A stretch of DNA of 64,000 nt, taken from Escherichia coli. GTDB lineage: Bacteria; Pseudomonadota; Gammaproteobacteria; Enterobacterales; Enterobacteriaceae. The DNA is taken from NCBI RefSeq assembly GCF_024700885.2, contig NZ_CP117016.1. One strand, 5' to 3'. The translations under genes and the position numbers were made by a program. The notes beneath the pieces were generated by a model, which was not told the DNA's origin, ran no database searches, and worked only from the letters and a program-made list of their open reading frames with translations. This document shows positions 1,663 to 29,372 of this stretch, piece after piece (position 1 is the first letter of the stretch; each line of letters begins with the position of its first letter).

Positions 1663-1688
1663 CCCTGTTCACACTGTAACCATCACGA

Positions 1689-1710
1689 ACCGCTCCGGCG
1701 GTTTTTTTAT
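1689..1710 (+). terminator. Short hairpin plus T7 tract between terminase and capsid genes (attenuator-like)
   Basis: accgc-tccg-gcggt stem-loop followed by ttttttt; the RBS aggagg and GTG start of the next gene follow. Confidence 0.35.
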
Positions 1711-1725
1711 TTTCAGGAGGCTGAT

Positions 1726-3663: not shown

Positions 3664-3707
3664 GTCTGATAAGGAGGACGGGAGGCGTGCGCCTCCCGTA
3701 ACAGGTT

Positions 3708-3929
3708 ATGGCAAAGATCCGATATCTGCAGGGCACGCATGATGCCCGGGCCGGGGATATCCGTGATGTGGCACAGCCGTGTGCGGAGGTGCTGGTTCGC
3801 CTGGGAAAGGCGGAGTACATCACGGTGCGACGTCCGGCAGGTCAGAAAAAGAAACGTGATGCGGAGCATGGCGAATGTGGAACCTTTTACGGCGAACCCG
3901 AAAAAACCAGAAATCAGGACGTGACGTAA
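3708..3929 (+). CDS. Hypothetical small protein (73 aa) between capsid and portal; overlaps the annotated portal start
   Basis: ORF only; follows the cgggaggc-gtgc-gcctcccg hairpin after the capsid gene; no recognisable family; weak RBS. Confidence 0.2.
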   Translation: MAKIRYLQGTHDARAGDIRDVAQPCAEVLVRLGKAEYITVRRPAGQKKKRDAEHGECGTFYGEPEKTRNQDVT

Positions 3930-6460
3930 GAGAGGCGGGCTGGACCAGCCTGTTTCAGGCGGTGGCTGAGCCCTTTTCCGGCGCCTGGCAGCAGGGCGTG
4001 AAAGCCGATCCTGAAGCCGTCCTCTCCTTTCATGCGGTGTTTGCATGTATTTCGCTGATATCCCAGGATATCGCCAAAATGCGGCTGCGTCTTATGCAGA
4101 CGGATGCGCATGGGATACGCAGGGAAACGCGCCGGGGGGATATTGCCCGCCTCTGTCGTCGTCCCAACGCCCAGCAGAACCGCATCCAGTTTTTTGAACT
4201 GTGGCTGAACGCCAAACTGCGTCACGGCAATACGGTGGTGCTGAAAATCCGTAATGCCCGGGGGCAGATCAAAGAACTGCGTATTCTGGACTGGAGCCGG
4301 GTTGAACCTCTGGTGGCGGATGACGGCGAGGTGTTCTACCGCATCACGCCGGACCGGAACTGCGGGATCACGGAGGCGGTGACGGTGCCTGCCCGGGAAG
4401 TGATCCACGACCGGTTTAACTGTTTTTTTCATCCGCTTATAGGATTGCCGCCGGTGTATGCCGCCGGGCTGGCGGCCACGCAGGGGCATCATATTCAGGA
4501 AAATTCGACGTCTTTTTTCAGAAATGGTGGCAGGCCGTCCGGGGTGATTGAGATCCCCGGCAGTATTACGGAAGAAAATGCGAAAAAACTGAAGAGCAAC
4601 TGGGACAGCGGGTATACAGGCGAAAATGCGGGGAAAACGGCCATTCTGAGCAACGGGGCAAAATACAACCCCACGACGTTTTCACCTGTGGATGCGCAGA
4701 CGGTGGAACAACTGAAGATGACCGCTGAAATTGTCTGTTCGGTGTTCCGTGTCCCGGCCTACAAGATTGGCGTGGGACAACCGCCTTCCAGTGACAACGT
4801 GGAGGCGCTGGAGCAGCAGTATTATTCCCAGTGCCTGCAGACGCTGATTGAGTCCATTGAACTGTTACTGGATGAGGCGCTGGAAACGGGGGAAAACGAG
4901 AGTACAGAATTTGATGTCACCACGCTGCTGAGAATGGACAGTGAGCGGCGCATGAAAACGCTGGGGGATGCGGTGAAAAATACGCTTCTCACGCCCAATG
5001 AGGCCCGTAAACGGGAGAACCTGCCGCCCCTGGCCGGCGGTGATGCACTGTATCTTCAGCAGCAGAACTACAGTCTGGAGGCGCTGTCCCGTCGTGATGC
5101 CCGTGAGGATCCGTTCTCGTCTGCCGGGAAAACAGTTTCATCACAGCTGCCTGACGGCGCATCTGACGGTAATAAGGCAATCAGTGAAACAGAGCATGAT
5201 GCGGTGAAAGCGATGTTCAGGGGGGATACTGAGAAAATGACGGAACGGGAACTGTCCATTATTCGTGCACTGGGAGAAGAATTCTCCACAGTGCTGGCGG
5301 ATTTACAGCGCACATTTGAGGGGAAGATGGCCTCGCAGGCACAAGCGTTTGAAGAGAAACTGACTTCCCTGTCGGCGGTATTACAGAAGCATGTGACGGT
5401 GGATGAGGTGCGTCCGGTTCTGCAGGCGATGGTGGATGACGCTGTGGGGGCCATTCCGGTACCGCGTGATGGTCGTGATTATGATCCGGATGTACTGCAG
5501 CAGGCGGTGAATGATGCGGTCGCAAATATTCCGCAGCCGGCGGACGGTAAAAGTCTCACCCCGGATGATGTGCGTCCGATGCTTGAACAGATGGTGAAGG
5601 AGGCTGTAAGCCATATCCCTGTTCCGCGTGATGGTCGTGACTACGATCCGGAAGTACTGCAGAAGGCGGTGAATGATGCGGTCGCAAATATTCCGCAGCC
5701 GGCGGACGGTAAAAGTCTCACCCCGGATGATGTGCGTCCGATGCTTGAACAGATGGTGAAGGAGGCTGTAAGCCATATCCCTGTTCCGCGCGACGGTCGT
5801 GACTATGATCCCGATGTTCTGCAGAAGGCGGTGAATGATGCGGTCGCAAATATTCCGCAGCCGGCAGACGGTAAAAGTCTCACCCCGGATGATGTGCGTC
5901 CGATGCTTGAACAGATGGTGAAGGAGGCGGTAAGCCATATTCATGTTCCGCGTGATGGTCGTGACTACGATCCGGATGTTCTGCAGAAGGCGGTTCTGGA
6001 TGCGGTGAGTGCCCTGCCGGCTCCGCAGGACGGGCGTGATGCCACGGCTCTGGAAATACTCCCCGCCATTGACGATCAAAAATCCTTTCCCCGGGGCACG
6101 TATGCCACACACCAGGGCGGACTCTGGCGGGCGTATGAAAAAACGCACGGGATGCGGGGATGGGAATGCCTGGTTGACGGGGTGGCGGATATTGACGTCA
6201 GCATGACGGGTGAGCGGTTGTTCTCTGTGGTGGTCCGGCAGAGCAGTGGCCAGCGTACGGAAAAAACATTTTCCCTGCCGGTGATGCTCTACCGCGGTGT
6301 GTTCAGAGCCGGTGAAACCTACCACCCCGGCGATACGGTGACGTGGGGGGGCTCGCTGTGGCACTGCAACAGTATGACCGAAGATAAACCCGGAGAAGCT
6401 CATTCATCAGCCTGGACCCTGGCTGCAAAACGTGGGCGGGATGCAGGAGGCGGAAAATGA
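3875..6460 (+). CDS. Portal protein (HK97 family) with about 465-aa C-terminal extension containing tandem repeats
   Basis: Residues about 40-400 align to HK97-type portal motifs (FHAVFACISLISQDIA, RRPNAQQNRIQFFELWLNAKLRHGNTVVL, FFRNGGRPSGVIEIPGSITEENAKKLKSNWDSGYTGENAGKTAILSNGAKYNP, NEARKRENLPPLAGGDALYLQ); the ORF continues uninterrupted for another about 465 codons. Start codon uncertain. Confidence 0.8.
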   Translation: MWNLLRRTRKNQKSGRDVREAGWTSLFQAVAEPFSGAWQQGVKADPEAVLSFHAVFACISLISQDIAKMRLRLMQTDAHGIRRETRRGDIARLCRRPNAQQNRIQFFELWLNAKLRHGNTVVLKIRNARGQIKELRILDWSRVEPLVADDGEVFYRITPDRNCGITEAVTVPAREVIHDRFNCFFHPLIGLPPVYAAGLAATQGHHIQENSTSFFRNGGRPSGVIEIPGSITEENAKKLKSNWDSGYTGENAGKTAILSNGAKYNPTTFSPVDAQTVEQLKMTAEIVCSVFRVPAYKIGVGQPPSSDNVEALEQQYYSQCLQTLIESIELLLDEALETGENESTEFDVTTLLRMDSERRMKTLGDAVKNTLLTPNEARKRENLPPLAGGDALYLQQQNYSLEALSRRDAREDPFSSAGKTVSSQLPDGASDGNKAISETEHDAVKAMFRGDTEKMTERELSIIRALGEEFSTVLADLQRTFEGKMASQAQAFEEKLTSLSAVLQKHVTVDEVRPVLQAMVDDAVGAIPVPRDGRDYDPDVLQQAVNDAVANIPQPADGKSLTPDDVRPMLEQMVKEAVSHIPVPRDGRDYDPEVLQKAVNDAVANIPQPADGKSLTPDDVRPMLEQMVKEAVSHIPVPRDGRDYDPDVLQKAVNDAVANIPQPADGKSLTPDDVRPMLEQMVKEAVSHIHVPRDGRDYDPDVLQKAVLDAVSALPAPQDGRDATALEILPAIDDQKSFPRGTYATHQGGLWRAYEKTHGMRGWECLVDGVADIDVSMTGERLFSVVVRQSSGQRTEKTFSLPVMLYRGVFRAGETYHPGDTVTWGGSLWHCNSMTEDKPGEAHSSAWTLAAKRGRDAGGGK
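5399..6046 (+). repeat. In-frame tandem repeat array, period 162 bp (54 aa), about 4 copies, inside the portal gene 3' extension
   Basis: Unit ccggatgatgtgcgtccgatgcttgaacagatggtgaaggaggc... recurs at 5561, 5723 and 5885 with near-identity; a diverged copy precedes and a partial copy follows. Confidence 0.9.
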
Positions 6461-6783
6461 CGGCATTACTGACACTGGAAGAGATCAAGGCACATCTGCG
6501 TGTCGACCATGACGCGGATGATGACATGCTGATGGACAAGGTTTGTCAGGCTACCGCCGTGCTGCTGGCCTACATTCAGGGCAGCCGGGATAAAGTGATC
6601 CGTGAGGACGGTGAACTGATCCCGGGCGAGGCATTAACCCGGATGAAGGGGGCTGCCATGCGACTGACCGGGATGCTGTACCGGAATCCGGATCTTGCGG
6701 AGCGGGAAGAACTGCTTCAGGGGGAGCTGCCGTTTTCTGTTTCCGTGCTGATTTACGATTTGCGTTGTCCGACGGTGTTATGA
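6457..6783 (+). CDS. Head-tail connector protein (gp6-like)
   Basis: 108-aa ORF, ATG overlapping the portal stop (ATGA); N-terminus TLEEIKAHLRVDHDADDDML typical of gp6-like connector proteins. Confidence 0.65.
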   Translation: MTALLTLEEIKAHLRVDHDADDDMLMDKVCQATAVLLAYIQGSRDKVIREDGELIPGEALTRMKGAAMRLTGMLYRNPDLAEREELLQGELPFSVSVLIYDLRCPTVL

Positions 6784-6792
6784 GGAGGGGGA

Positions 6793-7143
6793 ATGGCAAT
6801 ATCTGCAGGTCGTCTGACACAGATGATAAGTGTTCTGAATCCGGTGTTAACCCGTAACGCTGCCGGAGAAATGACGGAAGAATGGGTGTCATGCGGGAAA
6901 ATTCATGCGGATATCCGTGGCAGGAGCAGCCGGGAGCGGATGCAGTCCGGTGCGGAAATGGCGCAGGCGGAAATCCGCATCTGGGTGCGCGGTCAGTCCG
7001 GTCGGGAAATCACGGCAGCGTCACGACTTCATGTGCTGAGTGGTCCATGGCGTGACCGGATCCTGAACGTTGTCGGGCTGCCCGTGCCGGATGCGACCGG
7101 CGGGCGTCTGGAAATTCTCTGTCGGCTGGGAGGGGAAAAATGA
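6793..7143 (+). CDS. Head closure / head-tail adaptor protein
   Basis: 116-aa ORF with RBS gaggagg; position and size fit a head-tail joining protein. Confidence 0.55.
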   Translation: MAISAGRLTQMISVLNPVLTRNAAGEMTEEWVSCGKIHADIRGRSSRERMQSGAEMAQAEIRIWVRGQSGREITAASRLHVLSGPWRDRILNVVGLPVPDATGGRLEILCRLGGEK

Positions 7144-7586
7144 TCGAAACCCTGCTGGATTTTTCGGGGCTGGAGGACATCAGCCGCGATTTGCAGCTTC
7201 TGAGTGGTGCGGAAAATAACCGGGTGCTGCGTGAGGCAACCCGTGCGGGTGCGAATGTGCTGAAAGAAGAAGTGGTGTCACGGGCACCGGTACGCAGGGG
7301 AAAACTGCGCCGCAATGTGGTGATCCTTTCCCGGCGCTCCCGCGATGGCGGGATGGAATCCGGTGTCCATATCCGTGGTGTTAATCCGGACACCGGTAAC
7401 AGCGATAACACTATGAAGGCGGATAACCCGCGCAATGCTTTCTACTGGCGGTTTGTGGAAATGGGGACTGTGAATATGCCACCGCACCCGTTTGTGCGCC
7501 CGGCGTTTGATGTGCGCAGTGAACAGGCAGCTCAGGTGGCGATTGCGCGGATGAACCGGGCCATTGATGAGGTACTGAGACGATGA
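7140..7586 (+). CDS. Tail component protein (HK97 gp10-like)
   Basis: 148-aa ORF translationally coupled (ATGA overlap); position in the morphogenesis module. Confidence 0.55.
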   Translation: MIETLLDFSGLEDISRDLQLLSGAENNRVLREATRAGANVLKEEVVSRAPVRRGKLRRNVVILSRRSRDGGMESGVHIRGVNPDTGNSDNTMKADNPRNAFYWRFVEMGTVNMPPHPFVRPAFDVRSEQAAQVAIARMNRAIDEVLRR

Positions 7587-7927
7587 CGGAGGCGGATTTG
7601 TATCCTCATCTGGCGCATCTTGCCGGCGGGCAGGTGTACCCGTATGTGGTCCCCCTGCTGGATGGCAGGCCGTCGGTGGCGCTTCCGTGGGTGGTTTTCA
7701 GCCTGATTTCATCGGTGTCAGCGGACGTGATGGGCGGGCAGGCGGAGTCCTCAGTGTCGGTGCAGATAGACGTTTATGCCGGGACTGTGACGCAGGCGCG
7801 TCAGATACGTCAGGACGCCCGTGAAGCCATAATGCTGCTGGCCCCGGGATCCGTCAGTGAAATGCAGGACTATATTCCGGAAAACCGCTGTTACCGTGCA
7901 ACCCTGGAGTTTCAGGTCACGGTGTGA
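7583..7927 (+). CDS. Tail completion / tail terminator-like protein
   Basis: 114-aa ORF coupled to the upstream gene, immediately before the major tail gene. Confidence 0.5.
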   Translation: MTEADLYPHLAHLAGGQVYPYVVPLLDGRPSVALPWVVFSLISSVSADVMGGQAESSVSVQIDVYAGTVTQARQIRQDAREAIMLLAPGSVSEMQDYIPENRCYRATLEFQVTV

Positions 7928-7953
7928 CTTTTTCTTTTTTCTACAAAACCATA

Positions 7954-7976
7954 CCCCGCCGCGTGCGGGTTTTTTA
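7954..7976 (+). terminator. Hairpin plus T tract upstream of the major tail gene
   Basis: cccgc-cgcgt-gcggg followed by tttttt; caggagg RBS and ATG 7992 follow. Confidence 0.35.
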
Positions 7977-7991
7977 TTATCAGGAGGCAGA

Positions 7992-8708
7992 ATGTCTGCT
8001 TTGTATGAACGCTCACAGCTGACGCAGGTGATGATTTCATCTGCCCCGGCGACTGCTGAAACTATGGATAAGGCGGAATATCTGCGCCTGGATTGCACCA
8101 TCAAGGAAGTCCAGTTCACCGCCGGTCAGAAACAGGATATTGATGTGACCACGCTCTGCTCCACCGAGCAGGAGAACATCAACGGTCTGGGGGCGTCGTC
8201 TGAGATTTCCATGTCGGGTAATTTTTATCTGAATCAGGCCCAGAACGCCCTGCGTGATGCCTATGACAATGACGCGTTGTATGCGTTTAAGGTGCTGTTT
8301 CCGTCCGGTAAGGGCTTTAAGTTCCTGGCGGAAGTGCGTCAGCACACCTGGTCATCCGGTACCAACGGCGTGGTGGCAGCAACGTTTTCACTGCGTATGA
8401 AAGGCAAACCGGTGTCCTTTGTGGTACCGCTGGCGTTTGTGAAAAATCTGGATAAAACACTTACCGTGAATACAGGTGCGCTGCTGACAATGTCAGTCAG
8501 TGCCAACGGGGGAACGCCGCCGTATAAATACGCCTGGAAGAAGGATGGTCAGCCGGTTGACGGGCAGACGACAGACACCTTCAGTAAGCCAGGTGCGCAG
8601 TCCGCTGATGCGGGGAAATATACCTGCGTGGTGACCGATTCGGCAGAGAAAGCACAGAGTGTGACGTCTGTTGAATGCACCGTGACAGTGAGCGCAGCCG
8701 CCGGATAA
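7992..8708 (+). CDS. Major tail protein (lambda gpV-like) with C-terminal Ig-like domain
   Basis: ATG 7992 preceded by aggagg; C-terminal about 80 aa look like a bacterial Ig-like domain (TVNTGALLTMSVSANGGTPPYKYAWKKDGQPV...GKYTCVVTD), as in lambda gpV. Confidence 0.8.
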   Translation: MSALYERSQLTQVMISSAPATAETMDKAEYLRLDCTIKEVQFTAGQKQDIDVTTLCSTEQENINGLGASSEISMSGNFYLNQAQNALRDAYDNDALYAFKVLFPSGKGFKFLAEVRQHTWSSGTNGVVAATFSLRMKGKPVSFVVPLAFVKNLDKTLTVNTGALLTMSVSANGGTPPYKYAWKKDGQPVDGQTTDTFSKPGAQSADAGKYTCVVTDSAEKAQSVTSVECTVTVSAAAG

Positions 8709-8722
8709 GGGGATGGGTCATC

Positions 8723-9097
8723 ATGAAAAAGGATCTGAAAACGCTGGCGCTGGCCAGACTGTCAGGGTTTCGTCATAAAACGGTGAAGGTGCCGGAATGG
8801 GGTAATGTCAGCGTGGTGCTGCGGGAGCCTTCGGCAGAGGCCTGGTATCTGTGGCAGGAAGTGCTCAATGGTGATGGAGAGGATGACGATACCCTGTCGG
8901 TGGTGGCGAAAACCCGCCGTAACCTGGAAGCGGATGTGACGCTGTTCTGCGATGTCCTGTGTGATACGGATCTGCAGCGGGTGTTCGCTCCGGACGACCG
9001 TGAGCAGGTGCTGGCCGTCTATGGTCCGGTACATGCCCGGTTGCTGCGTCAGGCACTGGAACTGATCGCTGATGCAGAGTCGGCCAGAAAAAAGTAG
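8723..9097 (+). CDS. Tail assembly chaperone (lambda gpG-like)
   Basis: 124-aa acidic ORF immediately before the tape-measure gene; ends at TAG 9095-9097 just after the slippery heptamer. Confidence 0.8.
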   Translation: MKKDLKTLALARLSGFRHKTVKVPEWGNVSVVLREPSAEAWYLWQEVLNGDGEDDDTLSVVAKTRRNLEADVTLFCDVLCDTDLQRVFAPDDREQVLAVYGPVHARLLRQALELIADAESARKK

Positions 9098-9402
9098 CCC
9101 GCCCGGAAATTCGCTTTCTGATGCGACTTGCGCTCCGTCTGGGGCGCACCTTATCCGAACTGCGGCACAGCCTGAGTGTGAGCGAGGCGATGATGTGGAT
9201 GGAGTTCGACAGGGTATCCCCGCTGGGTGATGAGCGCGGGGATATCCGTAATGCACAGATCGTGAAAGCGGTTTTTGGGGCACAGGGGATGAATGTTGCA
9301 CTGAAGGACGCCATGCTCTGCTGGGGCGAGGATGAGGATAAGCCGGAGGTGGATCCGTTTGCGGCGCTGGAAGACGCGCTGAGCTTTGCAGCACAGTCAT
9401 GA
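8723..9402 (+). CDS. Tail assembly chaperone G-T fusion (made by -1 frameshift at 9088-9094)
   Basis: G-frame ORF plus contiguous -1 frame ORF; conserved G/GT arrangement upstream of tape-measure genes in long-tailed phages. Confidence 0.7.
9088..9094 (+). promoter_or_regulatory. Programmed -1 ribosomal frameshift site (A AAA AAG) generating the G-T fusion
   Basis: Heptamer A_AAA_AAG in the G zero frame 1 nt before the G stop; the -1 frame is open from 9094 to the TGA at 9400-9402 (ORF-track ORF 9121..9402). Confidence 0.75.
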
Positions 9403-9410
9403 ATGATGAG

Positions 9411-9431
9411 AACCGCTGAGGCGGTTTTTTT
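9411..9431 (+). terminator. Hairpin plus T tract between GT and the tape-measure gene
   Basis: aaccgc-tgag-gcggtt followed by ttttttt. Confidence 0.35.
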
Positions 9432-9449
9432 ACGCCCGGAGAAAGGTGA

Positions 9450-19690: not shown

Positions 19691-22516
19691 ATGACAGTAA
19701 AAATTTCTGGCGTGCTTAAAGATGGCACAGGAAAACCAGTACAGAACTGCACCATTGTGCTGAAGGCCAGACGAACCAGCAGCACGGTGGTGGTGAACAC
19801 GGTGGCCTCTGAAAATCCGGATGAAGCCGGACGTTACAGCATGGATGTTGAGCATGGTCAGTACAGCGTCACCCTGCTGGTTGAAGGTTTTCCGCCTTCA
19901 CATGCCGGGACCATTACCGTCTATGAAGGTTCCAGACCAGGTACGCTGAATGATTTTCTCGGTGCCATGACGGAGGATGATGTCCGACCGGAGGCACTGC
20001 GCCGCTTTGAGCAGATGGTGGAAGAGGTGTCACGTAACGCCTCCGCGGTTGCACAGAATACGGCAGCCGCGAAAAAATCAGCCAGCGATGCCAGTGCATC
20101 AGCCAGCGAGGCGGCAACTCATGCAACCGATGCTGCAGCCTCAGCACGTGCCGCCAGCACGTCAGCCGGACAGGCCGCGTCGTCGGCTCAGTCAGCGTCT
20201 TCCAGCGCAGGAACGGCATCGACAAAGGCCCGTGAAGCAGCAAAAAGTGCTGCTGCTGCAGAGTCATCAAAAAGCGCGGCAGCTACCAGCGCCAGTGCCG
20301 CGAAAACGTCAGAAACGAATGCCGCAGCATCACAAAAATCGGCAGCCACTTCTGCATCCACAGCGACCACGAAGGCGTCAGAAGCTGCCACCTCGGCACG
20401 GGGTGCGGCGGCCTCAAAAGAGGCAGCGAAATCATCAGAAACGAACGCATCATCAAGCGCCAGTAGTGCCGCTTCCTCGGCAACGGCGGCAGGCAATTCC
20501 GCGAAGGCGGCAAAGACGTCTGAGACAAACGCCAGGTCTTCTGAAACGGCAGCGGGACAGAGCGCCTCGGCTGCGGCAGGCTCAAAAACAGCGGCTGCGT
20601 CGTCTGCCAGTGCCGCGTCAACAAGTGCCGGGCAGGCCTCAGCCAGTGCCACCGCCGCCGGAAAATCGGCAGAAAGCGCCGCATCATCCGCTTCAACAGC
20701 CACAACGAAGGCTGGCAAAGCCACTGAGCAAGCCACTGCAGCAGCGAGGTCTGCTTCTGCAGCAAAAACCTCTGAAACAAATGCAAAGACTTCAGCAGAC
20801 AATGCTGCTTCCTCTAAGGCGGCAGCCGCATCGTCAGCCAGTTCAGCGGCGTCATCGGCATCATCTGCGTCTGCTTCAAAAGATGAGGCGACCAGACAAG
20901 CGTCAGCAGCGAAAGGTAGTGCCACGACAGCAACAATGAAAGCATCAGAGGCAGCTGGTAGTGTGACGGCGGCAGCTCAGAGCAAAAGTACGGCGGAATC
21001 CGCGGCAACGCGCGCCGAGACAGCAGCAAAACGGGCAGAGGATATTGCATCCGCCGTGGCGCTGGAGGATGCGAGCACGACGAAAAAGGGGATAGTACAG
21101 CTCAGCAGTGCGACCAACAGCACTTCCGAGTCACTGGCGGCAACGCCAAAAGCGGTTAAGGCGGTAATGGGTGAAACGAACAAGAAAGCGCCCTTAAATA
21201 GTCCTGCACTGACCGGAACGCCAACAACACCAACTGCGCGACAGGGAACGAATAATACCCAAATCGCAAGCACGGCTTATGTTATGGCTGCGATCGCTGC
21301 CCTCGTGGACTCGTCGCCTGACGCACTGAATACGCTGAACGAGCTGGCTGCGGCGTTGGGCAACGACCCGAATTTTGCGACCACCATGACTAACGCGCTT
21401 GCGGGTAAGCAACCGAAAGATGCCACCCTGACGGCGCTGGCCGGGCTTGCTACTGCGGCAGACAGGTTTCCGTATTTTACGGGGAATGATGTTGCCAGTC
21501 TGGCAACCCTGACAAAAGTTGGGCGGGATATTCTTGCGAAATCGACCGTTGCCGCCGTTATCGAATACCTCGGTTTACGAGAACTCGGCACAAGCGGGGA
21601 GAAAATACCGTTACTCAGTACAGCGAATACCTGGACTAATCGACAAACATTCAGCGGTGGCCTTTCTGGTGAACTATCCGGCAATGCTTCTACAGCTGCA
21701 AAATTAAAAACTGCCAGGAAAATAAGCAATGTGGCTTTTGATGGTTCCTCCGATATCACATTAAAAGCAAGTCATGTTGGTGCGTTTGCCTTAGGGAAAA
21801 CAGGAAGCACCGTTGCGAATGATAAAGCAGTTGGATGGAACTGGAGTAGCGGAGCCTATAACGCAACTATTAGTGGTGCATCAACGTTAATTATTCATTT
21901 TTATATGGGAGAAGGAAGTTGTCCTGCAGCTCAGTTTCGGATTAATTATAAAAATGGCGGTGTTTTTTATCGTTCAGCCCGTGATGGTTATGGTTTTGAA
22001 GCCGACTGGTCCGAATTTTACACCACCACCAGAAAACCTTCAGCAGGAGATGTTGGTGCACTGCCGTTATCTGGTGGTCAACTGAATGGTACACTGGGTA
22101 TCGGAACATCCAGTGCTCTTGGCGGTAATTCGATTGTATTGGGTGATAATGACACGGGCTTTAAACAAAATGGCGATGGTAATCTGGATGTTTATGCTAA
22201 TAACGTCCATGTTATGCGCTTTGTCTCCGGAAGCATTCAAAGTAATAAAACCATAAATATTACAGGGCGTGTTAACCCCTCGGATTACGGTAACTTTGAT
22301 TCCCGTTATGTGAAAGATGTTCGACTTGGTTCACAGCAATATTATGGAGTGAACAACTGGCAAACATGGTATTTCCGGTGCCCTTCAGGTCATGTATTGT
22401 CTGGTATTAATGTTCAGGATACAGGGTCTAACTCTGCCGATAATATAGCGGGCGTTTATTACAGACCCGTTCAGAAGTATATAAATGGCACCTGGTATAA
22501 TGTAGCGAGCGTTTAA
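19691..22516 (+). CDS. stf: Side tail fibre protein Stf (constant N-terminal part plus current variable C-terminal part)
   Basis: N-terminus [28 protein letters not shown]...[20 protein letters not shown] closely resembles lambda Stf; long Ala/Ser/Thr-rich region; the left crossover site lies inside the gene. Confidence 0.9.
21558..21583 (+). promoter_or_regulatory. Left recombination crossover site (gix/pix-like 26-mer) for a Gin/Pin-family invertase
   Basis: TTATCGAATACCTCGGTTTACGAGAA; 22 of 26 positions match the reverse complement of the right site; the inverted-repeat similarity extends to about 40 bp. Confidence 0.7.
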
Positions 22517-22517
22517 T

Positions 22518-23051
22518 ATGATGCACTTAAAGAACATAAAAGCGGGTAATGCTAAAACACTGGAACAGTATGAGTTAACAAAGAAACACGGAGTTATCTG
22601 GCTTTACTCTGAGGACGAAAAAAACTGGTATGAGGAAGTGAAAAACTTTCAGCCAGACACCATAAAGATTGTTTACGATGAAAATAATATTATTGTTGCC
22701 ATAACCAAAGATGCCTCCACACTTAACCCTGAAGGTTATAGCGTCGTTGAGATTCCTGATATTACCGCCAACCGGCGTGCTGACGACTCAGGTAAATGGA
22801 TGTTTAAAGATGGCGCAGTCATTAAACGTGTATATACCGAAGAAGAGTTGCGCCTACAGACGGAAAACCAGAAAAAAATATTATTACAGCAGGCCAGAGA
22901 AAAAACGCAGTTCTGGCAAACACAGCTTACTTTGGGGATTATCACTGATTCAGACAGACAGCAACTGATGAACTGGATGCGATACGTGCAAAAGGTTGAG
23001 ACAACTGATACCTCGGTTCTTCCTGTAACATTCCCGGAACCACCAGAATAA
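22518..23051 (+). CDS. tfa: Tail fibre assembly protein Tfa (current orientation)
   Basis: 177-aa ORF starting 1 nt after the stf stop; Tfa-like sequence. Confidence 0.85.
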
Positions 23052-23081
23052 GAAAAGGCCCGTACGGGCCTTAATTTGTTG

Positions 23082-23609
23082 TTATTCTGGTTTCTGTGGC
23101 CATTCAGGCTTTGCAGTATCCACACGGCTGACCATAACGCTGTAGCGTTCCCATGATTCCAGTCGTGTGCGTTCCTCATCAGTTGCCATATTCAGTCTGA
23201 CAGCACGTTCCAGCGGTTGAATCACAGACTCCGCTTCGGAAAGCAAAGCGGCTTTTTGTAACTCTGCCTGCTGTTGCAGTTCCTGTTTTGTATATTCCCG
23301 CTTTACTACTTTACCATCCAGAAACTTCCAGTTTCCCGAGATATCGGCGCGACGGTTGGCTGTTATATTCGGTAACTCAACAACACTTAACCCGTCAGGG
23401 TTAAGTGTTGATACGTCTTTCTCAATACAACGAATAATCCCCTTCTGGTCATAAGCTATTTTTAAAGTATCATCCTGAAAGTTTTTTAATTCGTCATACC
23501 AGTTTTTACCGTCTTCTGTATATAGCCAGATAACGCCAGCTTTTTTCGTAAGCTGATACTGCTCAATGGTTTTGGGGTTTCCGGCGGTAATATTTTTCAG
23601 ATGTTGCAT
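23082..23609 (-). CDS. Alternative tail fibre assembly protein (Tfa') in the invertible segment
   Basis: 175-aa ORF convergent with tfa and paralogous to it ([30 protein letters not shown] vs [30 protein letters not shown]); a shared hairpin aaggcccgtacgggcctt lies between them. Confidence 0.8.
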
Positions 23610-23624
23610 ATATTCTCCTGATGG

Positions 23625-24593
23625 CTATGCCTGTTCAACGTTATACCAGTTACCAGAAATGTATTTTTGTAGTGGTCGTGACACCATCCAGTCATCTCCA
23701 TCAACCTCACCAATAATTTGCAATCCTGTTGTCACATGACCATTACCTGGTTCGCAAAGTCCTCCGCGATATAATGTGTCAGAACGTCTGCCTCCCAGAC
23801 GCACATTTCTGATAAAAGAACTATTCAGGTAATCATTTAAGTTTGAACCCCAGCACCCACCAAATATATTTCCATCGGTGTTATAACGGACGCCACCCGC
23901 AATAAGAGCACCCGGTGAAATAAAGGATTTATCGTTCGGGTTAAACTGCCATAAAGCATCATTACCGCCATCGCCACGCATATGAATACATGGAACCGGA
24001 AATCCATACTGTTCTGTCAGTAAATACCCAAAGCTGACCGCGCCGGGATAGCCCTGTCCATTGCGAATGGACAAGCCCTTAACTATCGGCACGTAATGAC
24101 CACCAGGAGTGGGATTCCAGGCAAACTGCGTCTGAACAAAAGGCGCGGTGGCATTATTCAACTGGTCTGCAAATGCGCCACTTCCATCAGGAATTATTCC
24201 CTGATGAATATATGCAACCCGCTTATAAAAATCAGCAGATGCGGGTTGAAGTCCAAATGCCAGTTGTCCATTTGAATAGAATAAAAGGACACCGTCGCCG
24301 CCCTGTTTAATACCAGTGTCGTTATCTCCGAGAGTAATGGAATTACCGCCCAGTGCGTTATCTGTACCAAGCGCCAGCCCACCATCAATTTTGGCCCCGT
24401 GGCTGACAGATATAGCACCTGTTCTCAGATTTATAGCGAATGGCCTTAATGGGCCTATATCACCGTTTTCGCCTTGTCCTTCAGCCGTCGGAATGAAATG
24501 AAGAAAATCTTCTGAACGACGGAAAATAAGACCGAAGGCATCATTGAAAATTCGCAGCGCATTCACCGTGCCAATTTTCAGTTCTCCGGTCAT
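23625..24593 (-). CDS. Alternative Stf C-terminal (receptor-binding) cassette, silent in this orientation
   Basis: 322-aa minus-strand ORF whose C-terminus (LQKYISGNWYNVEQA) parallels the current Stf C-terminus ([15 protein letters not shown]); reads in frame into the right crossover site. Confidence 0.75.
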   Translation of the reverse strand: MTGELKIGTVNALRIFNDAFGLIFRRSEDFLHFIPTAEGQGENGDIGPLRPFAINLRTGAISVSHGAKIDGGLALGTDNALGGNSITLGDNDTGIKQGGDGVLLFYSNGQLAFGLQPASADFYKRVAYIHQGIIPDGSGAFADQLNNATAPFVQTQFAWNPTPGGHYVPIVKGLSIRNGQGYPGAVSFGYLLTEQYGFPVPCIHMRGDGGNDALWQFNPNDKSFISPGALIAGGVRYNTDGNIFGGCWGSNLNDYLNSSFIRNVRLGGRRSDTLYRGGLCEPGNGHVTTGLQIIGEVDGDDWMVSRPLQKYISGNWYNVEQA

Positions 24594-24638
24594 TTTATCG
24601 CCGGAACGCTGAACGGCGTTACCAGCCTTGTTTACCGT

Positions 24639-24664
24639 TTCCTGTAAACCGAGGTTTTAGATAA
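24639..24664 (+). promoter_or_regulatory. Right recombination crossover site (gix/pix-like)
   Basis: TTCCTGTAAACCGAGGTTTTAGATAA, one base off the Gin/Pin/Cin crossover-site consensus as I remember it; the invertase remnant lies immediately downstream. Confidence 0.8.
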
Positions 24665-24718
24665 TGGCGGTTTCTGGCCTGTATGGCATGATTTGTGCTT
24701 TTGGACGGGAGATTCAGC

Positions 24719-24901
24719 GTGCTGATTGGCTATGTAAGGGTATCAACAAATGACCAGAATACAGATCTGCAACGAAACGCTCTTGTTTGTGCAGGATATG
24801 AACAAATATTTGAAGATAAATTAAGCGGAACAAGGACAGGCCGACCTGGATTAAAACGTGCTTTAAAGCGCCTTCAAAAAGGTGACGCACTGGTTGTCTG
24901 A
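24719..24901 (+). pseudogene. Truncated serine DNA invertase (Pin/Gin/Hin family), N-terminal about 60 codons only
   Basis: GTG-LIGYVRVSTNDQNTDLQRNALVCAGYEQIFEDKLSGTRTGRPGLKRALKRLQKGDALVV then TGA where family members continue WKLDRLGR; a second in-frame stop follows and similarity is then lost. Confidence 0.85.
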
Positions 24902-24951
24902 AAACTGGACTGACTGGTTCACTGTATGCGGCATCTTGTCGTGCTGGTGGT

Positions 24952-25094
24952 GGAAGCCTGGAAAAAGTATCGGGTGTTGCTGAACCGTGTTGATACATCA
25001 ACTGCACCTGATATTGAGTGGCCTACGAACCCTGTCAGGGAGTAATCATTGGGATTATGCCGCAGCACGTCTTAAGCAAGAACGTGCTGCGGTT
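24952..25094 (+). repeat. Direct repeat copy A: 3' end of a tfa-like gene plus terminator hairpin
   Basis: About 143 bp, roughly 88% identical by eye to 26001..26144; encodes ...[28 protein letters not shown] followed by hairpin ccgcagcacgt...acgtgctgcgg. Confidence 0.85.
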
Positions 25095-25099
25095 GGATG

Positions 25100-25768
25100 C
25101 TATTTTTTCCCTGAAGCGGAAAACATTACTACAGTACCTTGAACCTTGGTTTTAACATTCTCGAAATGCTCTGAGAGTATATGTGTTAAGCCTTCTTCGG
25201 AATCTTTTGTGTTTGAAAAGATGCCTTTCTGATTGTAAATGCGCATCAGTTTTTGACCGAAGCTATTGTGCACAACTCCATCGCCAAGAATTGTGGCTCC
25301 GTATAGAGTTCCATCGTCAGTTAAGGCCTGCGCCGCATTGCGTATTACACAGCTTTTTGTAGATATATTTCCAGGCAGGCAGTGAAGAAGGTAAAACATG
25401 GAAATGGAATCAAATTGACCATGTAACGCCGCGGGATAAGGTTCAAAAACATCATGGCTAATTTTATGTTTAATTTTTGATTCCCCAGCCCTTGTAGATG
25501 CCGCGTTCAGGCTAGCTTCGTTCAAATCCATTAAAGATATCAGACTACTCTCAGGTACGTGAGTAAGGTAAAACCCAGTTCCAACACCAATATCCAGATG
25601 GTTGTTACCTACATGTTCCAGAAAGTGTGGAAGAAGGTGTTCCTTTGTAGGACATCCCCATGCAAGCCGATTTGATACTCCCAAAACCCACCAGTCATAA
25701 AGCTTTAGGGTAAGTGGTGTGTAAATTTTAGCCCCATCATCTGTGTTTTTTTTCATTGATTTCACCAT
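25100..25768 (-). CDS. Class I SAM-dependent methyltransferase (substrate unknown); prophage cargo gene
   Basis: 222-aa ORF with Rossmann SAM-binding motif LDIGVGTGFYL; no DPPY/NPPY or PC-type DNA-methyltransferase motifs seen; appears AT-richer than its surroundings; flanked by the direct repeats. Confidence 0.7.
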   Translation of the reverse strand: MVKSMKKNTDDGAKIYTPLTLKLYDWWVLGVSNRLAWGCPTKEHLLPHFLEHVGNNHLDIGVGTGFYLTHVPESSLISLMDLNEASLNAASTRAGESKIKHKISHDVFEPYPAALHGQFDSISMFYLLHCLPGNISTKSCVIRNAAQALTDDGTLYGATILGDGVVHNSFGQKLMRIYNQKGIFSNTKDSEEGLTHILSEHFENVKTKVQGTVVMFSASGKK

Positions 25769-25824
25769 GTTATAGTTTTATTTGTGAATTAAATCAATTA
25801 TGGCGATGAATTACAAGGGGTTAA

Positions 25825-26094
25825 ATGCTGCCGCAGCATAGCGATATTGAAATAGCCTGGTATGCTTCGATACAGCAGGAGCCGAATGGCTGGAAGACCG
25901 TCACCACACAGTTCTACATCCAGGAATTCAGTGAGTATATTGCGCCACTGCAGGATGCTGTAGATCTGGAAATCGCAACGGAGGAAGAAAGATCGTTGCT
26001 GGAGGCATGGAATAAATATCGGGTATTGTTGAATCGTGTTGTTACATCAACTGCACCTGATATTGAGTGGCCTGCAAATCCTGTCAGGGAGTAA
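25825..26094 (+). CDS. Tfa C-terminal-domain-like small protein (89 aa); likely remnant
   Basis: C-terminus [50 protein letters not shown] is the Tfa C-terminal signature; the N-terminus is unrelated. Confidence 0.5.
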
Positions 26095-26144
26095 TCATTG
26101 GGATTATGCCGCAGACACGTCGTATGCAGGAACGTGCTGCGGTT
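26001..26144 (+). repeat. Direct repeat copy B (see 24952..25094)
   Basis: Same tfa 3' end plus hairpin, diverged. Confidence 0.85.
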
Positions 26145-26208
26145 AGTTTGTGAGCTTTCGATAGTGGTTGTTATTTTTGCCCTTATTTGTTCCGGAGGCC
26201 ATGGTTCA

Positions 26209-26379
26209 ATGGTCCGTCTGCCCCCTGTGGTGATGTCAGCAAAATCAGCCACTGCGCGAACCACAATAGCCCGGGAAGATGCTGAAGATCACCAGGTAAA
26301 GCTATCAGCGCAGAAACTGGAAGAACTGCTCGCATCAATGGTTAAGGATGAGGTTGATCGCAATGATGGGATTTATTGA
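26209..26379 (+). CDS. Hypothetical small protein; may be a decayed gene fragment
   Basis: ORF only (MVRLPPVVMSAKSATARTTIAREDAEDHQVKLSAQKLEELLASMVKDEVDRNDGIY); coiled-coil-like reading continues in another frame after the stop. Confidence 0.15.
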   Translation: MVRLPPVVMSAKSATARTTIAREDAEDHQVKLSAQKLEELLASMVKDEVDRNDGIY

Positions 26380-26691
26380 CGTCAGCGAGAGCAGAAGGAA
26401 GAACTGAATAACCTGAATGATTTACGCTCAATCAGAGCGATGATGATTGGCAGTAATTAGCGGTCAATTTCGGTTTTGTTGGCTGTGCGCTCCCCGCCCA
26501 GCATTGCGCGTCAATTAGCCCCAAAAAAACGAAAAAGTTACAATCAAGTAAAAAATTCCTTCTGCAAAACTAAAAAAGATTTCAATAAAATCAGACAGTT
26601 AAAAACATAAAAAAAAGGTACAAAAAAACATCTCAAAGTCTTGTTTTTTGCTTCAAATACAATTGGTTATTGTGTTTTTTGAAACCTACCA

Positions 26692-26808
26692 GTGTGGTAC
26701 ATGGATATCGATACCACCGCCAATTATAAACTGGGCGGTGCACAGCAACACGATAGCGTACGCCTCGATCCGTGGGTGTTTATGTTCTCAGCAGGATATC
26801 GTTTTTAA
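26692..26808 (+). pseudogene. ompW: 3' remnant of ompW (last about 38 codons) at the prophage-chromosome junction
   Basis: Translates to VWYMDIDTTANYKLGGAQQHDSVRLDPWVFMFSAGYRF*, which I recognise as the OmpW C-terminus; no upstream ompW coding sequence precedes it; in K-12 ompW is the intact neighbour of yciE. Confidence 0.8.
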
Positions 26809-26867
26809 TTCCGCACAAAAACGACCCCGTAATATACGGGGTCAATAAGGACATGGCATAAAGGGTA

Positions 26868-27374
26868 TTATTTCTTCGCTTCTACGCCATCAGTTTCAGA
26901 GCGAATTAAAAATTTCTCAGTTGTTTGCGGAATATGCTGAATCAGCCAGTCGGCCATTTCTTTTTCCTCATTTAAAATCGCTTCGATGGTTGGAATTGAA
27001 GCTGTATCACCGGCATTTTTTGCTGCTGCTAATAGTGAGGTGTAACAGGCGATTTCAAATTGCTCGAAGACATATCCGCTAATAGAGCCTTTGACTATTT
27101 CATCAGAAGGGAATATACCACCGATTGACTGCCCAAGCGCAGCCATTTTACTCATGGAATCTTTAATGACTGAACGTGAAATGTCATTACGATCAAGAAT
27201 AGTTTCCAGTTGAACAATCTGGTTTTTGGTTTCACTAAGATGTTGTTCAATACGAGCGCGTAGTTCAGGATAATTATCTATACGACTAGCCATGGATTCA
27301 AGCATAGATTCGGCTTGCTTTTCCATTGCGTGGGCGTCACGTAACCAGTCATGATAATGTTCAATACGATTCAT
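26868..27374 (-). CDS. yciE: YciE, ferritin-like stress protein
   Basis: 168-aa ORF starting MNRIEHYHDWLRDAHAMEKQAE; matches K-12 YciE; synteny with yciF and yciG. Confidence 0.93.
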   Translation of the reverse strand: MNRIEHYHDWLRDAHAMEKQAESMLESMASRIDNYPELRARIEQHLSETKNQIVQLETILDRNDISRSVIKDSMSKMAALGQSIGGIFPSDEIVKGSISGYVFEQFEIACYTSLLAAAKNAGDTASIPTIEAILNEEKEMADWLIQHIPQTTEKFLIRSETDGVEAKK

Positions 27375-27419
27375 GAAAATGTCCTCTTTATAAAATGACT
27401 AAAAGTTAAAGTTCATATT

Positions 27420-27920
27420 TCAGGCTTTATTTTCGGCTTTCTTATTTACGTTATTAAGTGCCAGATCAGTCAGTTTGATGTCGGTGGCCTTTTCTTCTTC
27501 AAGAGTTTCTTTCAGAAGTTTCGCTGCTTTACGGTAACCTAATTGTTCAGCCAGCGTCGCTAAGATCCCGTAACTGGCGATCTCATAGTGCTCGACTTTC
27601 TGTGCAGCGGCAATCAGTGCGGCATCACGTACTTCGTTTTTCAAGGTACTTTCGATGACCTCATTAGCTTCTTCAATGAGACCTTCCATTGCCACACATT
27701 TCATGCGCTTAATTTTCAGATTCGATTCAGATTCCACAACTTGATCAATACGTTCAATCTGTCCATGTGTTTCCTCGAGGTGCGCATGAAAAGCCTGACT
27801 TAATTTTTCGTTTGATGTTGCTCTTGCGAGTTTTGCCAGTGCCCGGGTTAATTGTTTTTCTGCGCTGTAGGTATCTGAAAGCAGGTGAATAAAGACATCT
27901 TCAATGGTCTTCATATTCAT
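27420..27920 (-). CDS. yciF: YciF, ferritin-like stress protein
   Basis: Starts MNMKTIEDVFIHLLSDTYSAEKQL, 166 aa; the longer ORF-track start is rejected. Confidence 0.93.
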   Translation of the reverse strand: MNMKTIEDVFIHLLSDTYSAEKQLTRALAKLARATSNEKLSQAFHAHLEETHGQIERIDQVVESESNLKIKRMKCVAMEGLIEEANEVIESTLKNEVRDAALIAAAQKVEHYEIASYGILATLAEQLGYRKAAKLLKETLEEEKATDIKLTDLALNNVNKKAENKA

Positions 27921-28005
27921 ATTTTTCTCCAGTGAAATCACTGCGAGCCATACGGCCCGCAGATGCAATTATCTTTATCAACTGATATTAATAATTAACG
28001 GTGAA

Positions 28006-28185
28006 TCAGGATTTTCCTGATTTATTACCACCGCTTTGTTGACCGCCTTTTTTACCCGCTTCAGATGCGCGTTGCGGATCATTTTTAAAATTACCGCCGC
28101 TATGCTGACCGCCTTTACGGCCAGCGTCGGATGCCTTTTCACGGTCTTCGGCGAAATTTCCTGAACCACCACGATGTTCGGCCAT
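28006..28185 (-). CDS. yciG: YciG, small Gly-rich stress protein
   Basis: MAEHRGGSGNFAEDREKASDAGRKGGQHSGG... 59 aa. Confidence 0.9.
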   Translation of the reverse strand: MAEHRGGSGNFAEDREKASDAGRKGGQHSGGNFKNDPQRASEAGKKGGQQSGGNKSGKS

Positions 28186-28565
28186 GTTATTTCTCCCGTT
28201 GCGTTGCATTGTTTCATTAATATGAGTGTTGTGTGTCGACACTCATTAAAATTAGTCGCTAATGAAAATTAGTCAAATTAAGCGCAACGAGAAGAAAGAG
28301 GGAAAATATATTATGAGGAACATTCTGGATATATTAACAATTGCCTGAGGAATAAGTGACTTAGAGAAAATTATTGATTTTACTGGTGTTATGTTGCGGG
28401 ATTAATTTGTTTGATTATATTACTGTTGGGCGGAAAAAAGACGTAAGTTGACTTTCGACAGGGGTAAGCGAAACGGTAAAAAGATAAATAATAAATGAAT
28501 TTAGGATTTTTCCAGCTTCGTTAAAGAAAGTTAAAATGCCGCCAGCGGAACTGGCGGCTGTGGGA

Positions 28566-29372
28566 TTAACTGCGCGTCGCCGCTTTCATCGGTTGTACAA
28601 AAGCTTTCAGTGCCGCCAGCATTTTCTCTGGCTCATTAATATGTTGCTCGATGATTTTAACGATGGCCGAACCAGAAATCGCGCCCGCAGCTCCTGCATC
28701 AATCGCTGCTTTTACCTGATCCGGGGCGGAAATACCAAAGCCCTGCAATGGAGGCGCAGCATTGTATTCTTTCAGCTTCGTGACCAGATGATTGAGGGGT
28801 AACGCGGCGCGGTTTTCTGCGCCGGTCACGCCCGCACGTGACAATAAATAGGTGTATCCACGACCGTAGGAGGCTATCTGGCGCAGCAAATCATCGTCGG
28901 CATTCGGCGGGCAAATAAAGATAGGTGCGACATTATGACGCAACGCGGCCTGGCGGAAGGGAGCGGACTCTTCCACTGGCACATCGGCAACCAGCACCGA
29001 ATCGACGCCGACTTTCTCGCACTGGGCATAAAACTCATCAATGCCTTTGTTAAACACCAGGTTGGCATACATCAAAAGGCCGATGGGAATGGTCGGGTGC
29101 TTCTGGCGAATCAGTGCCAGCATCTCAAAGCACTGTGCCGGGGTCACACCTGCCGCAAAGGCACGCAGTGTGGCGTTTTGAATCGTCGGGCCATCCGCCA
29201 GTGGGTCGGAGAAGGGGATACCTAACTCCAGCGCGTCAGCACCGGCTTCAATTAGCGTGTCGATAATTTTCAGCGACTGCTCAATGCCCGGATCACCGAG
29301 CGTGACGAAAGGAACGAATGCGCCTTCTTTGCGCTCCTTCAACTGGGCAAACAGAGATTCGTAGCGTTCCAT
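28566..29372 (-). CDS. trpA: Tryptophan synthase alpha subunit
   Basis: 268 aa, [28 protein letters not shown]; start overlaps the trpB stop. Confidence 0.97.

Follow-up and report, generated by a model that had tools for sequence, protein, structure and literature searches.

The tail fiber locus and its reading frames

In the window, i.e. the stretch of 64,000 nucleotides of Escherichia coli DNA analyzed here, the side tail fiber gene stf (ORF 19691-22516, 941 aa; PHROG tail fiber families up to E 3e-215) runs into a segment of 3,081 bp that is bracketed by two inverted sites and holds two cassettes, Sv-tfa and tfa'-Sv'. A remnant of an invertase gene lies beyond the right site. The features of the locus are:

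19691..21570, + strand: Sc, constant 5' part of stf, outside the invertible segment and common to both fusion products
21558-21583, inside stf: left 26-bp crossover site; exchange point at the central TC (21570-21571)
21571..22516, + strand: Sv, the currently expressed variable C-terminal end of Stf (315 aa)
22518..23051, + strand: tfa, tail fiber assembly chaperone paired with Sv (phrog_136, E 4e-69)
23082..23609, - strand: tfa', alternative tail fiber assembly chaperone (phrog_136, E 7e-77)
23625..24651, - strand: Sv', alternative variable end of Stf, 342 aa when fused (matches PHROG tail fiber families)
24639-24664: right 26-bp crossover site, inverted relative to the left one; exchange point at 24651-24652
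24719..24955, + strand: invertase remnant of ~79 codons (PHROG DNA invertase families, E 5e-33)
24737-24804, in the remnant upstream of its first stop: putative equivalent of the Fis-dependent recombinational enhancer (sis)
24948..25045, + strand: 3' fragment of a tfa gene, in frame with the invertase remnant; deletion or replacement junction

Phi1, a P2-like prophage of strain EC958 with an invertible H/G fiber region, has two alternative fiber ends, and Sv shares 97% identity with one of them. Compared to U and U' of phage Mu, tfa shows 65-69% identity, while tfa' is 56% identical to tfa and 78% to Mu U. The ORF of Sv' spans 23625-24593 and its frame is open up to the right site; as a fusion partner it lacks its own start and depends on inversion to be read. 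When inversion was simulated at 21570/21571 and 24651/24652, an open Stf of 968 aa was obtained, reading ...EYLGLQETVNKAGNAVQRSGDKMTGELKIG... across the junction. The gene is in frame both ways round, with Stf products of 941 aa and 968 aa. The initial annotation had described a segment of ~3 kb with the stf variable end and tfa, and on the opposite strand tfa' and an alternative cassette, as well as an stf frame that stays open across a simulated inversion. Both descriptions are borne out, the former by ORFs and PHROG matches and the latter by the same junction sequence. It had also named inactivating mutations in the alternative cassette as a finding that would count against its reading; the translated fusion is open throughout. 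This 968-aa fusion is annotated as an intact protein (WP_071550361.1) in EC958 assembly CP138232, and the open fusion frame also occurs in L002. Both Stf products are full-length and have matching chaperones, and the rest of the head-tail gene set is complete.

Crossover sites, invertase remnant and putative enhancer region

A repeat search of the window yielded an inverted repeat of 32 nt (21552-21583 / 24639-24670, 84% complementary) that contains both sites. The left 26-bp core is TTATCGAATACCTCGGTTTACGAGAA and the right one, as reverse complement, is TTATCTAAAACCTCGGTTTACAGGAA. They share the central TC and differ at positions 6, 9, 22 and 23, in agreement with the four mismatches reported before; the longest perfect match between the repeat arms is 12 bp (ACCTCGGTTTAC). 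A consensus scan of the 64 kb returned exactly these two sites (0 expected, 100 shuffles), and with regard to a multi-site Min-type system, no further crossover sites were present in the window at ≤ 3 mismatches. These three analyses uphold the initial call of two inverted, gix/pix-like 26-bp sites. Alignment to known sites, which the initial annotation had proposed as a check, showed that the right site matches gix of Mu at 25/26 positions (one differs) and that the left site has the same sequence as the left site of Phi1 (EC958; Table 3, PMC4134206). The latter identity is an addition to the published work. It does not support the earlier hint that the left site is degraded, and the Phi1 segment differs in orientation between two EC958 assemblies. 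The observed architecture is that of a Gin/Pin-type (Din) tail fiber inversion switch.

A complete serine invertase gene, with catalytic domain, E helix and C-terminal helix-turn-helix, is absent beside the segment, where ~79 codons are left. The remnant starts with a GTG codon at 24719. Its first TGA (24899-24901) takes the place of Trp61, for which gin, pinE and the Phi1 invertase gene have TGG, and its second TGA (24911-24913, position 65) corresponds to an Arg codon in the same three genes. The TGA at the family Trp and the second stop had both been correctly recognized by the initial annotation. Its description as a 60-codon stump holds for the position of the first stop, after codon 60, and relatives annotate the remnant as a 60-aa 'recombinase family protein' (WP_001421220.1), but the invertase homology reaches ~codon 79. 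Likewise, loss of homology does not coincide with the second stop: the 5' ~180 bp are Gin-like, the last ~30 bp are pinE-like, and a stretch nearly identical to pinE (ATGCGGCATCTTGTCGTGCTGGTG) runs past this stop to ~24955. Because of the two nonsense codons and the loss of everything after ~codon 79, the adjacent invertase gene is, judged by its sequence, a dead, non-functional remnant. A second copy of the tfa fragment (25997-26144) is 89% identical to the fused one in a local alignment. In strains EC931 and CH4796, a different, non-invertible fiber module precedes the same tfa fragment and the methyltransferase gene that comes after it.

The 5' end of the remnant retains a putative enhancer. 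In the phage P7 record, the cin enhancer is annotated at nt 19-86 of the cin CDS; the equivalent region here (24737-24804) differs from Mu gin at two positions and may function as an enhancer. A motif scan, which is weak evidence, detected two G-N13-C Fis-like 15-mers (24740-24754 and 24789-24803), with a distance of 96 and 145 bp between their centers and the point of crossover. Their spacing of 49 bp compares with 48 bp between the Fis sites of Hin. Given the nature of the motif scan, no spacing rule was relied on. In native Hin, the distance from hixL to the proximal Fis site is ~100 bp (PMC3798978). The retention of the enhancer-equivalent in the stump is new compared to the published work. 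We put forward only tentatively, as a possibility that we doubt more than we favor, that what is left of the dead invertase gene now serves as a cis-regulatory element. In this view, the deletion took away two thirds of the gene and spared the first ~90 bp with the Fis enhancer. Invertases from unrelated prophages in the same cell could then still flip the segment, host-range switching would obligatorily depend on a second prophage, and lineages without a compatible helper would be frozen in one orientation.

Orientation of the segment and the candidate flipping enzyme

The same locus was described by Forde et al. 2014 (PLoS One 9:e104400, PMC4134206) as prophage Phi4 of EC958, with crossover sites at 1484784..1484809 and c1487865..1487890. 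The authors reported a "severely truncated" Phi4 invertase, inferred an enzyme acting in trans, noted near-identical crossover sites in the P2-like prophage Phi1 and obtained an alternative-allele PacBio contig for Phi4, i.e. both alleles in a single EC958 culture (PMC4134206). EC958 is ungapped-colinear with our simulated inversion and its Stf is open (968 aa). Its sites are both exact hybrids of the window's left (L) and right (R) sites, in reciprocal fashion: one combines the left half of L with the right half of R, the other the left half of R with the right half of L. The crossover can thus be placed within the 12-bp core.

The locus was found in 364 complete E. coli genomes, and the inverted left junction, queried as an 800-bp sequence built in silico, was present in 242/364 (match identity 99.8-100%). 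A spread ranking puts the window orientation in ~116-138 genomes, in agreement with 364 - 242 = 122; all orientation counts represent the assembly consensus. The 800-bp junction queries were used instead of the whole 3.8-kb segment, which cannot sort orientations: both of its versions give 364 genomes, because the interior alone makes up 81% of the query and both orientations pass the 80% coverage cutoff. The same stump accompanies the locus in both orientations. Isolate U12A is oriented like the window, and U15A is inverted. Both belong to the dominant cluster from one patient, of whom five urine isolates differ by 26 core SNPs in total (PMC6692316). Furthermore, the assembly of WS3294A, which is identical to the window across the 800-bp left junction and ~99.9% identical over 21300-25100, contains two untrimmed ends in opposite orientations. 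For this lineage, both orientations, the reciprocal hybrids and the published mixed culture point to reversible exchange at the site centers.

The locus is therefore the already published Phi4 locus and a known, still-working switch in its lineage, since both orientations occur among related genomes. The initial annotation had considered the fiber locked unless an invertase is supplied in trans. The trans clause stands, but the locked state is opposed by both orientations among the genomes (242/364 inverted), by U12A and U15A, by the hybrid sites and by the two alleles in one EC958 culture (PMC4134206). The two EC958 assemblies show no difference in Phi4 orientation, which is evidence neither way; as they do differ in Phi1 orientation, Phi4 may flip less often than Phi1.

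In our opinion, the locus is very probably a host-range switch of the Mu G-segment type that belongs to an ompW-integrated lambdoid prophage, the orthologue of Phi4, and is flipped in trans. The constant 5' part of stf ends in a 26-bp gix-like site, with the inverted second site 3.08 kb downstream and the two divergent cassettes (Sv-tfa and tfa'-Sv') in between. A serine invertase of the Gin/Cin/Pin/Hin group would exchange strands at the central TC, and with each flip the stf frame would continue into the other variable end, accompanied by its matching chaperone gene. The prophage's own invertase gene is dead and the cis-acting parts are kept, namely the two crossover sites and, within the first 90 bp of the stump, the enhancer-equivalent, so that a related enzyme produced elsewhere in the same cell could flip the segment. 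The fiber variants would be expected to change the host range.

In ST131, intact paralogous invertases coexist with the locus in the same genomes. The Phi1 recombinase is intact (199 aa), its gene is 100% conserved in many Phi4-carrying genomes, and the Phi1 segment has opposite orientations in the two EC958 assemblies. On these grounds, the 199-aa Phi1 invertase is the best candidate for the flipping enzyme in ST131. Such action in trans has precedents: the Salmonella H segment is inverted by Fin of Fels-2 where Hin is lacking (PMC3535392), the P segment of e14 by PinQ/PinR, and the G segment of Mu by PinE (PMC12529663).

It is unlikely, but the strongest of the alternatives, that the genome of the window itself has no compatible invertase and that its switch is a locked relic, with the fiber fixed in the Sv orientation. 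No active enzyme can come from the stump, and MLI114, a near-twin of the window (99.991% identical over 10.8 kb), has the same orientation. The search for pin/gin-family genes suggested by the initial annotation was run on MLI114. A synteny check revealed no e14 at icd; the mukB-serS interval and aroA, the sites of Phi1 and Phi2 in ST131, were likewise free of prophages. Window positions 21300-25100 match one place only, i.e. there is no second Gin/Phi1-type 5' copy. These findings agree with a locked relic. One extra chromosomal megablast match to the set of pinE, the Phi2-type invertase and P7 cin counts against it. This match was found with chimeric queries (a single-copy trp region joined to the invertase genes, counting places per record) and is a candidate only, as it shows neither position nor intactness. 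In addition, a helper could also be a plasmid-borne P1-like cin gene, invertases of this group cross-complement, and one assembly reflects only the orientation that predominates in a culture. Finally, WS3294A, near-identical to the window, carries both orientations in one assembly. A compatible helper may be present in the window's own genome.

A very improbable alternative is that the host rather than the phage profits from the retained switch, with the fiber or chimeric protein of one orientation blocking adsorption of other phages. PinQ, encoded by one cryptic prophage, flips the P segment of e14, which is a different prophage, and the resulting product StfE2 blocks T2 adsorption (PMC12529663). 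The switch here likewise depends on a different prophage, and it survives in damaged prophages, e.g. with ISEc12 in lom of EC958. However, no sequence feature points to host benefit, and two full-length fibers with matching chaperones and a complete head-tail set are what phage host-range switching predicts. Host benefit is also compatible with a trans-flipped host-range switch and does not exclude it.

RecA-dependent recombination between the inverted repeats, or a single ancient inversion inherited vertically, is favored by the position of the sites within a 32-36 bp imperfect inverted repeat and by orientation counts that alone cannot tell mechanisms apart, but RecA exchange in E. coli usually needs roughly 25 bp, far more than the 12 bp of the longest perfect arm match, and the exchange maps inside exactly that core. 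We reject both variants as having a negligible probability, based on the hybrid sites, the patient isolates and the mixed culture (PMC4134206), since one ancient event cannot explain orientations that differ between clonal isolates of one patient and within single cultures.

Comparison with known inversion systems

A pseudogenized recombinase beside an intact switch does not mean that the switch is off, and caution is needed in such cases: it may stay on because members of this invertase family also use one another's sites. In genome annotation and assembly, segments of this kind give rise to alternative contigs, artefactual duplications (as in WS3294A) and 'partial' fiber gene calls. The locus is a clear case of a prophage that relies on another prophage for tail fiber variation in the pandemic ST131 clone, a point already made in 2014. 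Next to the identity of the left site with that of Phi1, we add only counts at the population scale, a crossover position mapped from the site mismatches, and the putative enhancer region retained in the stump.

The closest known system is Phi4 of EC958. It has the same ompW insertion site next to the trp operon, the same gene order, the same two sites (in recombined form in EC958) and the same truncated invertase fused to the tfa fragment, followed by the methyltransferase gene. Window positions 24644-26442 are 99.7% identical to EC958 and the invertible segment 99.4%. In EC958, in contrast to the window, the segment is assembled the other way round, lom carries ISEc12, and yciEFG beside the prophage has been lost. 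The head and tape-measure genes of the window match other strains (MLI114, EC931), with EC931 and CH4796 matching window positions 1-15000 at 100%, starting at the same base. The chromosomal background of the window appears not to be ST131.

With the G segment of Mu, the locus shares the Sc / Sv-U / U'-Sv' layout, a segment of roughly 3 kb, and an invertase gene immediately beyond the right site, whose 5' end carries the enhancer in Mu and its putative equivalent here. Mu gin and the stump differ by two bases between alignment columns 101 and 200. Unlike in Mu, where the fiber is that of a myovirus, the gene here encodes the side fiber (Stf) of a lambdoid siphovirus, the invertase is dead, and the variable ends share no more than 27-42% identity with S and S' of Mu. 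Phi1 has the identical left site and one fiber end in common (97%), and the 5' end of its invertase gene is ~94% identical to the stump, whereas its invertase is intact, its segment is 2.77 kb, its second cassette is another one and its virion is that of a myovirus. As with Fin, PinE and PinQ/PinR, the invertase of one prophage would flip a segment elsewhere in the chromosome (PMC3535392, PMC12529663). The target loci in those systems normally keep a working invertase of their own, whereas the cognate invertase gene is permanently lost here, which makes the dependence on another invertase obligatory.

Organization of the invertible fibre module

Within the window lies the late region of a lambdoid prophage that is inserted in ompW and adjoins yciEFG and the trp operon. 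The identities tail fibre, tail fibre assembly and DNA invertase are backed by PHROG profiles.

Features of the fibre module and its surroundings (window coordinates)
15399-18872: J, upstream of lom and stf
18940-19539: lom, between J and stf
19691-22516: stf, side tail fibre, 941 aa (PHROG tail fibre)
22518-23051: tfa, directly after stf (PHROG tail fibre assembly)
23082-23609, opposite strand: second tfa, tfa' (PHROG tail fibre assembly)
23625-24593, opposite strand: ORF of the alternative fibre C-terminal cassette, open up to 24651 (PHROG tail fibre)
24737-24804: putative equivalent of the P7 cin enhancer, within the truncated invertase gene and upstream of its first stop
25100-25768, minus strand: class I SAM-dependent methyltransferase, 222 aa, WP_000240999.1 (phrog_2132, no known function)

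A repeat search of the window returned an inverted repeat (21552-21583 and 24639-24670), the 26-bp cores of which share a central TC and differ at positions 6, 9, 22 and 23. The right core equals Mu gix with one change and the left site is identical to the left site of Phi1, another prophage of the ST131 strain EC958. No further sites of the same kind were found in the 64-kb window, and none are expected by chance. In silico inversion of 3,081 bp, cut at both site centres, results in an open Stf of 968 aa and reproduces the junction peptide of the initial annotation, which had correctly described inverted sites with four mismatches, an in-frame junction and a dead invertase.

Many deposited chromosomes (EC931, CH4796, EcPNK004 and many ST131 assemblies) begin at the exact first base of the window. 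This shared start lies within the terminase large-subunit gene of the prophage, suggesting that an automatic re-orientation step chose this gene as record start.

Invertase remnant and cis-acting elements

From GTG 24719 onward, 60 residues of a Gin-like N-terminus are followed by a TGA in place of Trp and, four codons further, by a second TGA that replaces Arg; the remnant cannot make an active enzyme. Both stops had been noted before, but the loss of homology placed there did not hold, as the sequence past the second stop is near-identical to e14 pinE as far as about 24955. From that point it corresponds to the final 29 codons of a tfa gene. Two direct copies of this tfa 3' fragment plus downstream sequence (24948-25094 and 25997-26144; 89% identical) flank the methyltransferase gene. 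EC931 and CH4796 have head and tail genes in common with the window but a different, non-invertible fibre module, directly followed by the same tfa fragment and methyltransferase gene. The truncated form therefore seems to stem from a module replacement or a deletion that ended within the invertase gene, and the methyltransferase cassette at the prophage end behaves as a module of its own.

The remnant is also mosaic. Over the first ~180 bp it is near-identical to Mu gin and to the invertase gene of Phi1, whereas its last ~30 bp (24925-24955) match e14 pinE and not gin, which indicates that invertase genes had recombined before the truncation.

Segment inversion by this invertase group needs a Fis-bound enhancer in cis; for Hin, its native position is about 100 bp from hixL (PMC3798978). 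In the phage P7 record, the annotated cin enhancer occupies nt 19-86 of the gene's coding sequence. The putative equivalent in the remnant (24737-24804) has two base differences from Mu gin and contains two Fis-like G-N13-C 15-mers, whose centres are 96 and 145 bp away from the point of crossover. All cis elements appear to be retained, and we infer that they may function.

Both orientations among E. coli genomes

The locus is present in 364 complete E. coli genomes. An 800-bp query built from the in silico inverted left junction matched 242 of these end to end at 99.8-100%. By an estimate from an evenly spaced ranking of matches, some 116-138 genomes have the window-type junction at 99.8% identity or higher, which is consistent with the 122 left when 242 is taken from 364. 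Phi4, the EC958 orthologue of the window prophage, likewise sits in ompW and has the same truncated recombinase, and its segment is inverted; it is colinear and gap-free with the in silico inverted sequence and encodes an open Stf of 968 aa. With the four mismatches as markers, the EC958 left site (TTATCGAATACCTCGGTTTACAGGAA) and right site (as reverse complement, TTATCTAAAACCTCGGTTTACGAGAA) are exact reciprocal hybrids of the two window sites. The exchange therefore occurred between core positions 9 and 22, which fits the expectation of a staggered cut at the central dinucleotide. RecA-dependent exchange as the source of the inversion is argued against by the arms, which match perfectly over 12 bp at most.

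Switching is recent. Isolates U12A (window orientation) and U15A (inverted) fall within the dominant cluster of one patient's isolates, and the five urine isolates of this patient have 26 core SNPs in all between them (PMC6692316). The proposal that the fibre is locked is thus contradicted for the lineage by the inverted genomes, the hybrid sites and the isolates of this patient.

Strain WS3294A matches the window perfectly across the 800-bp left junction and with 99.9% identity across 21300-25100. Its assembly ends in ~16.4 kb of untrimmed overlap, the two copies of which hold opposite orientations. In the circular record (NZ_CP035819.1, 4979441-4996164 and 1-16998), this direct duplication spans the record start; it begins with the tail genes, takes in J, lom, stf and the switch, and reaches as far as the methyltransferase gene. 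Frameshifts affect several genes of the copy at the start of the record. The duplication looks like a contig-end overlap whose merging was prevented by the inversion, an artefact that Forde et al. 2014 warned of (PMC4134206).

ISEc12 interrupts lom in EC958 (1184-4369 of the compared stretch) and in many ST131 genomes, where yciEFG is also absent beside the prophage; both lom and yciEFG are intact in the window. The switch thus persists in prophage copies at differing stages of decay.

Probable source of the invertase and relation to known switches

Phi1 likely supplies the helper invertase. This P2-like prophage beside serS encodes an intact 199-aa recombinase, its segment has opposite orientations in two EC958 assemblies, and of its two fibre ends, one has 97% identity to the variable end currently expressed in the window. 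Many Phi4-bearing genomes also carry the Phi1 invertase gene, conserved at 100%. It is established that enzymes of the Gin/Pin group cross-act: when Hin is missing, Fels-2 Fin inverts the H segment (PMC3535392), PinE inverts Mu G, and PinQ and PinR invert the e14 P segment (PMC12529663).

In strain 4/0 (NZ_CP023849.1, 940000-975000), the chromosomal block dmsA...aroA is inverted compared to EC958 (966000-1012000) and K-12. This ~47 kb inversion ends within the invertible fibre regions of two P2-like prophages flanking the block, and invertase genes of 199 and 190 aa lie 2.2 kb apart with fibre fragments in between. Candidate agents are an invertase or homologous recombination; the 4/0 prophage beside serS has an identity of only about 89% with Phi1 in that region.

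A switch locked in the window's own strain is improbable, even if its near-twin MLI114 offers some grounds for it. MLI114 is 100% identical to the window over 1-15000, shows a single mismatch across the 10,845 bp of 18300-29144 and shares its orientation and truncated invertase. Among the sites inspected in MLI114, icd is free of e14, and serS and aroA are free of prophages. Window 21300-25100 has a single place in MLI114, which thus has no second Gin/Phi1-type gene. Against locking, places per chromosome were counted with chimeric queries joining a single-copy trp segment to invertase genes. The MLI114 chromosome gave two places with six invertase types, and also with only pinE, the gene type of the EC958 prophage Phi2 and P7 cin, whereas one place was found in several sister genomes whose trp segment is identical. 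MLI114 therefore has one Pin/Cin/Phi2-type homologue, intact or not, somewhere in its chromosome.

The window switch is the already known, published Phi4 orphan switch: Forde et al. 2014 described exactly this locus, with a segment of 3,106 bp, crossover sites 1484784..1484809 and c1487865..1487890 that are near-identical to those of Phi1, and the alternative allele on a separate PacBio contig from the same EC958 culture, and concluded from the severely truncated invertase that an enzyme acts in trans (PMC4134206). The initial observation is confirmed with two corrections and its interpretation is partly supported. The locus belongs among the Gin/Pin-type fibre switches but lacks a working invertase of its own.
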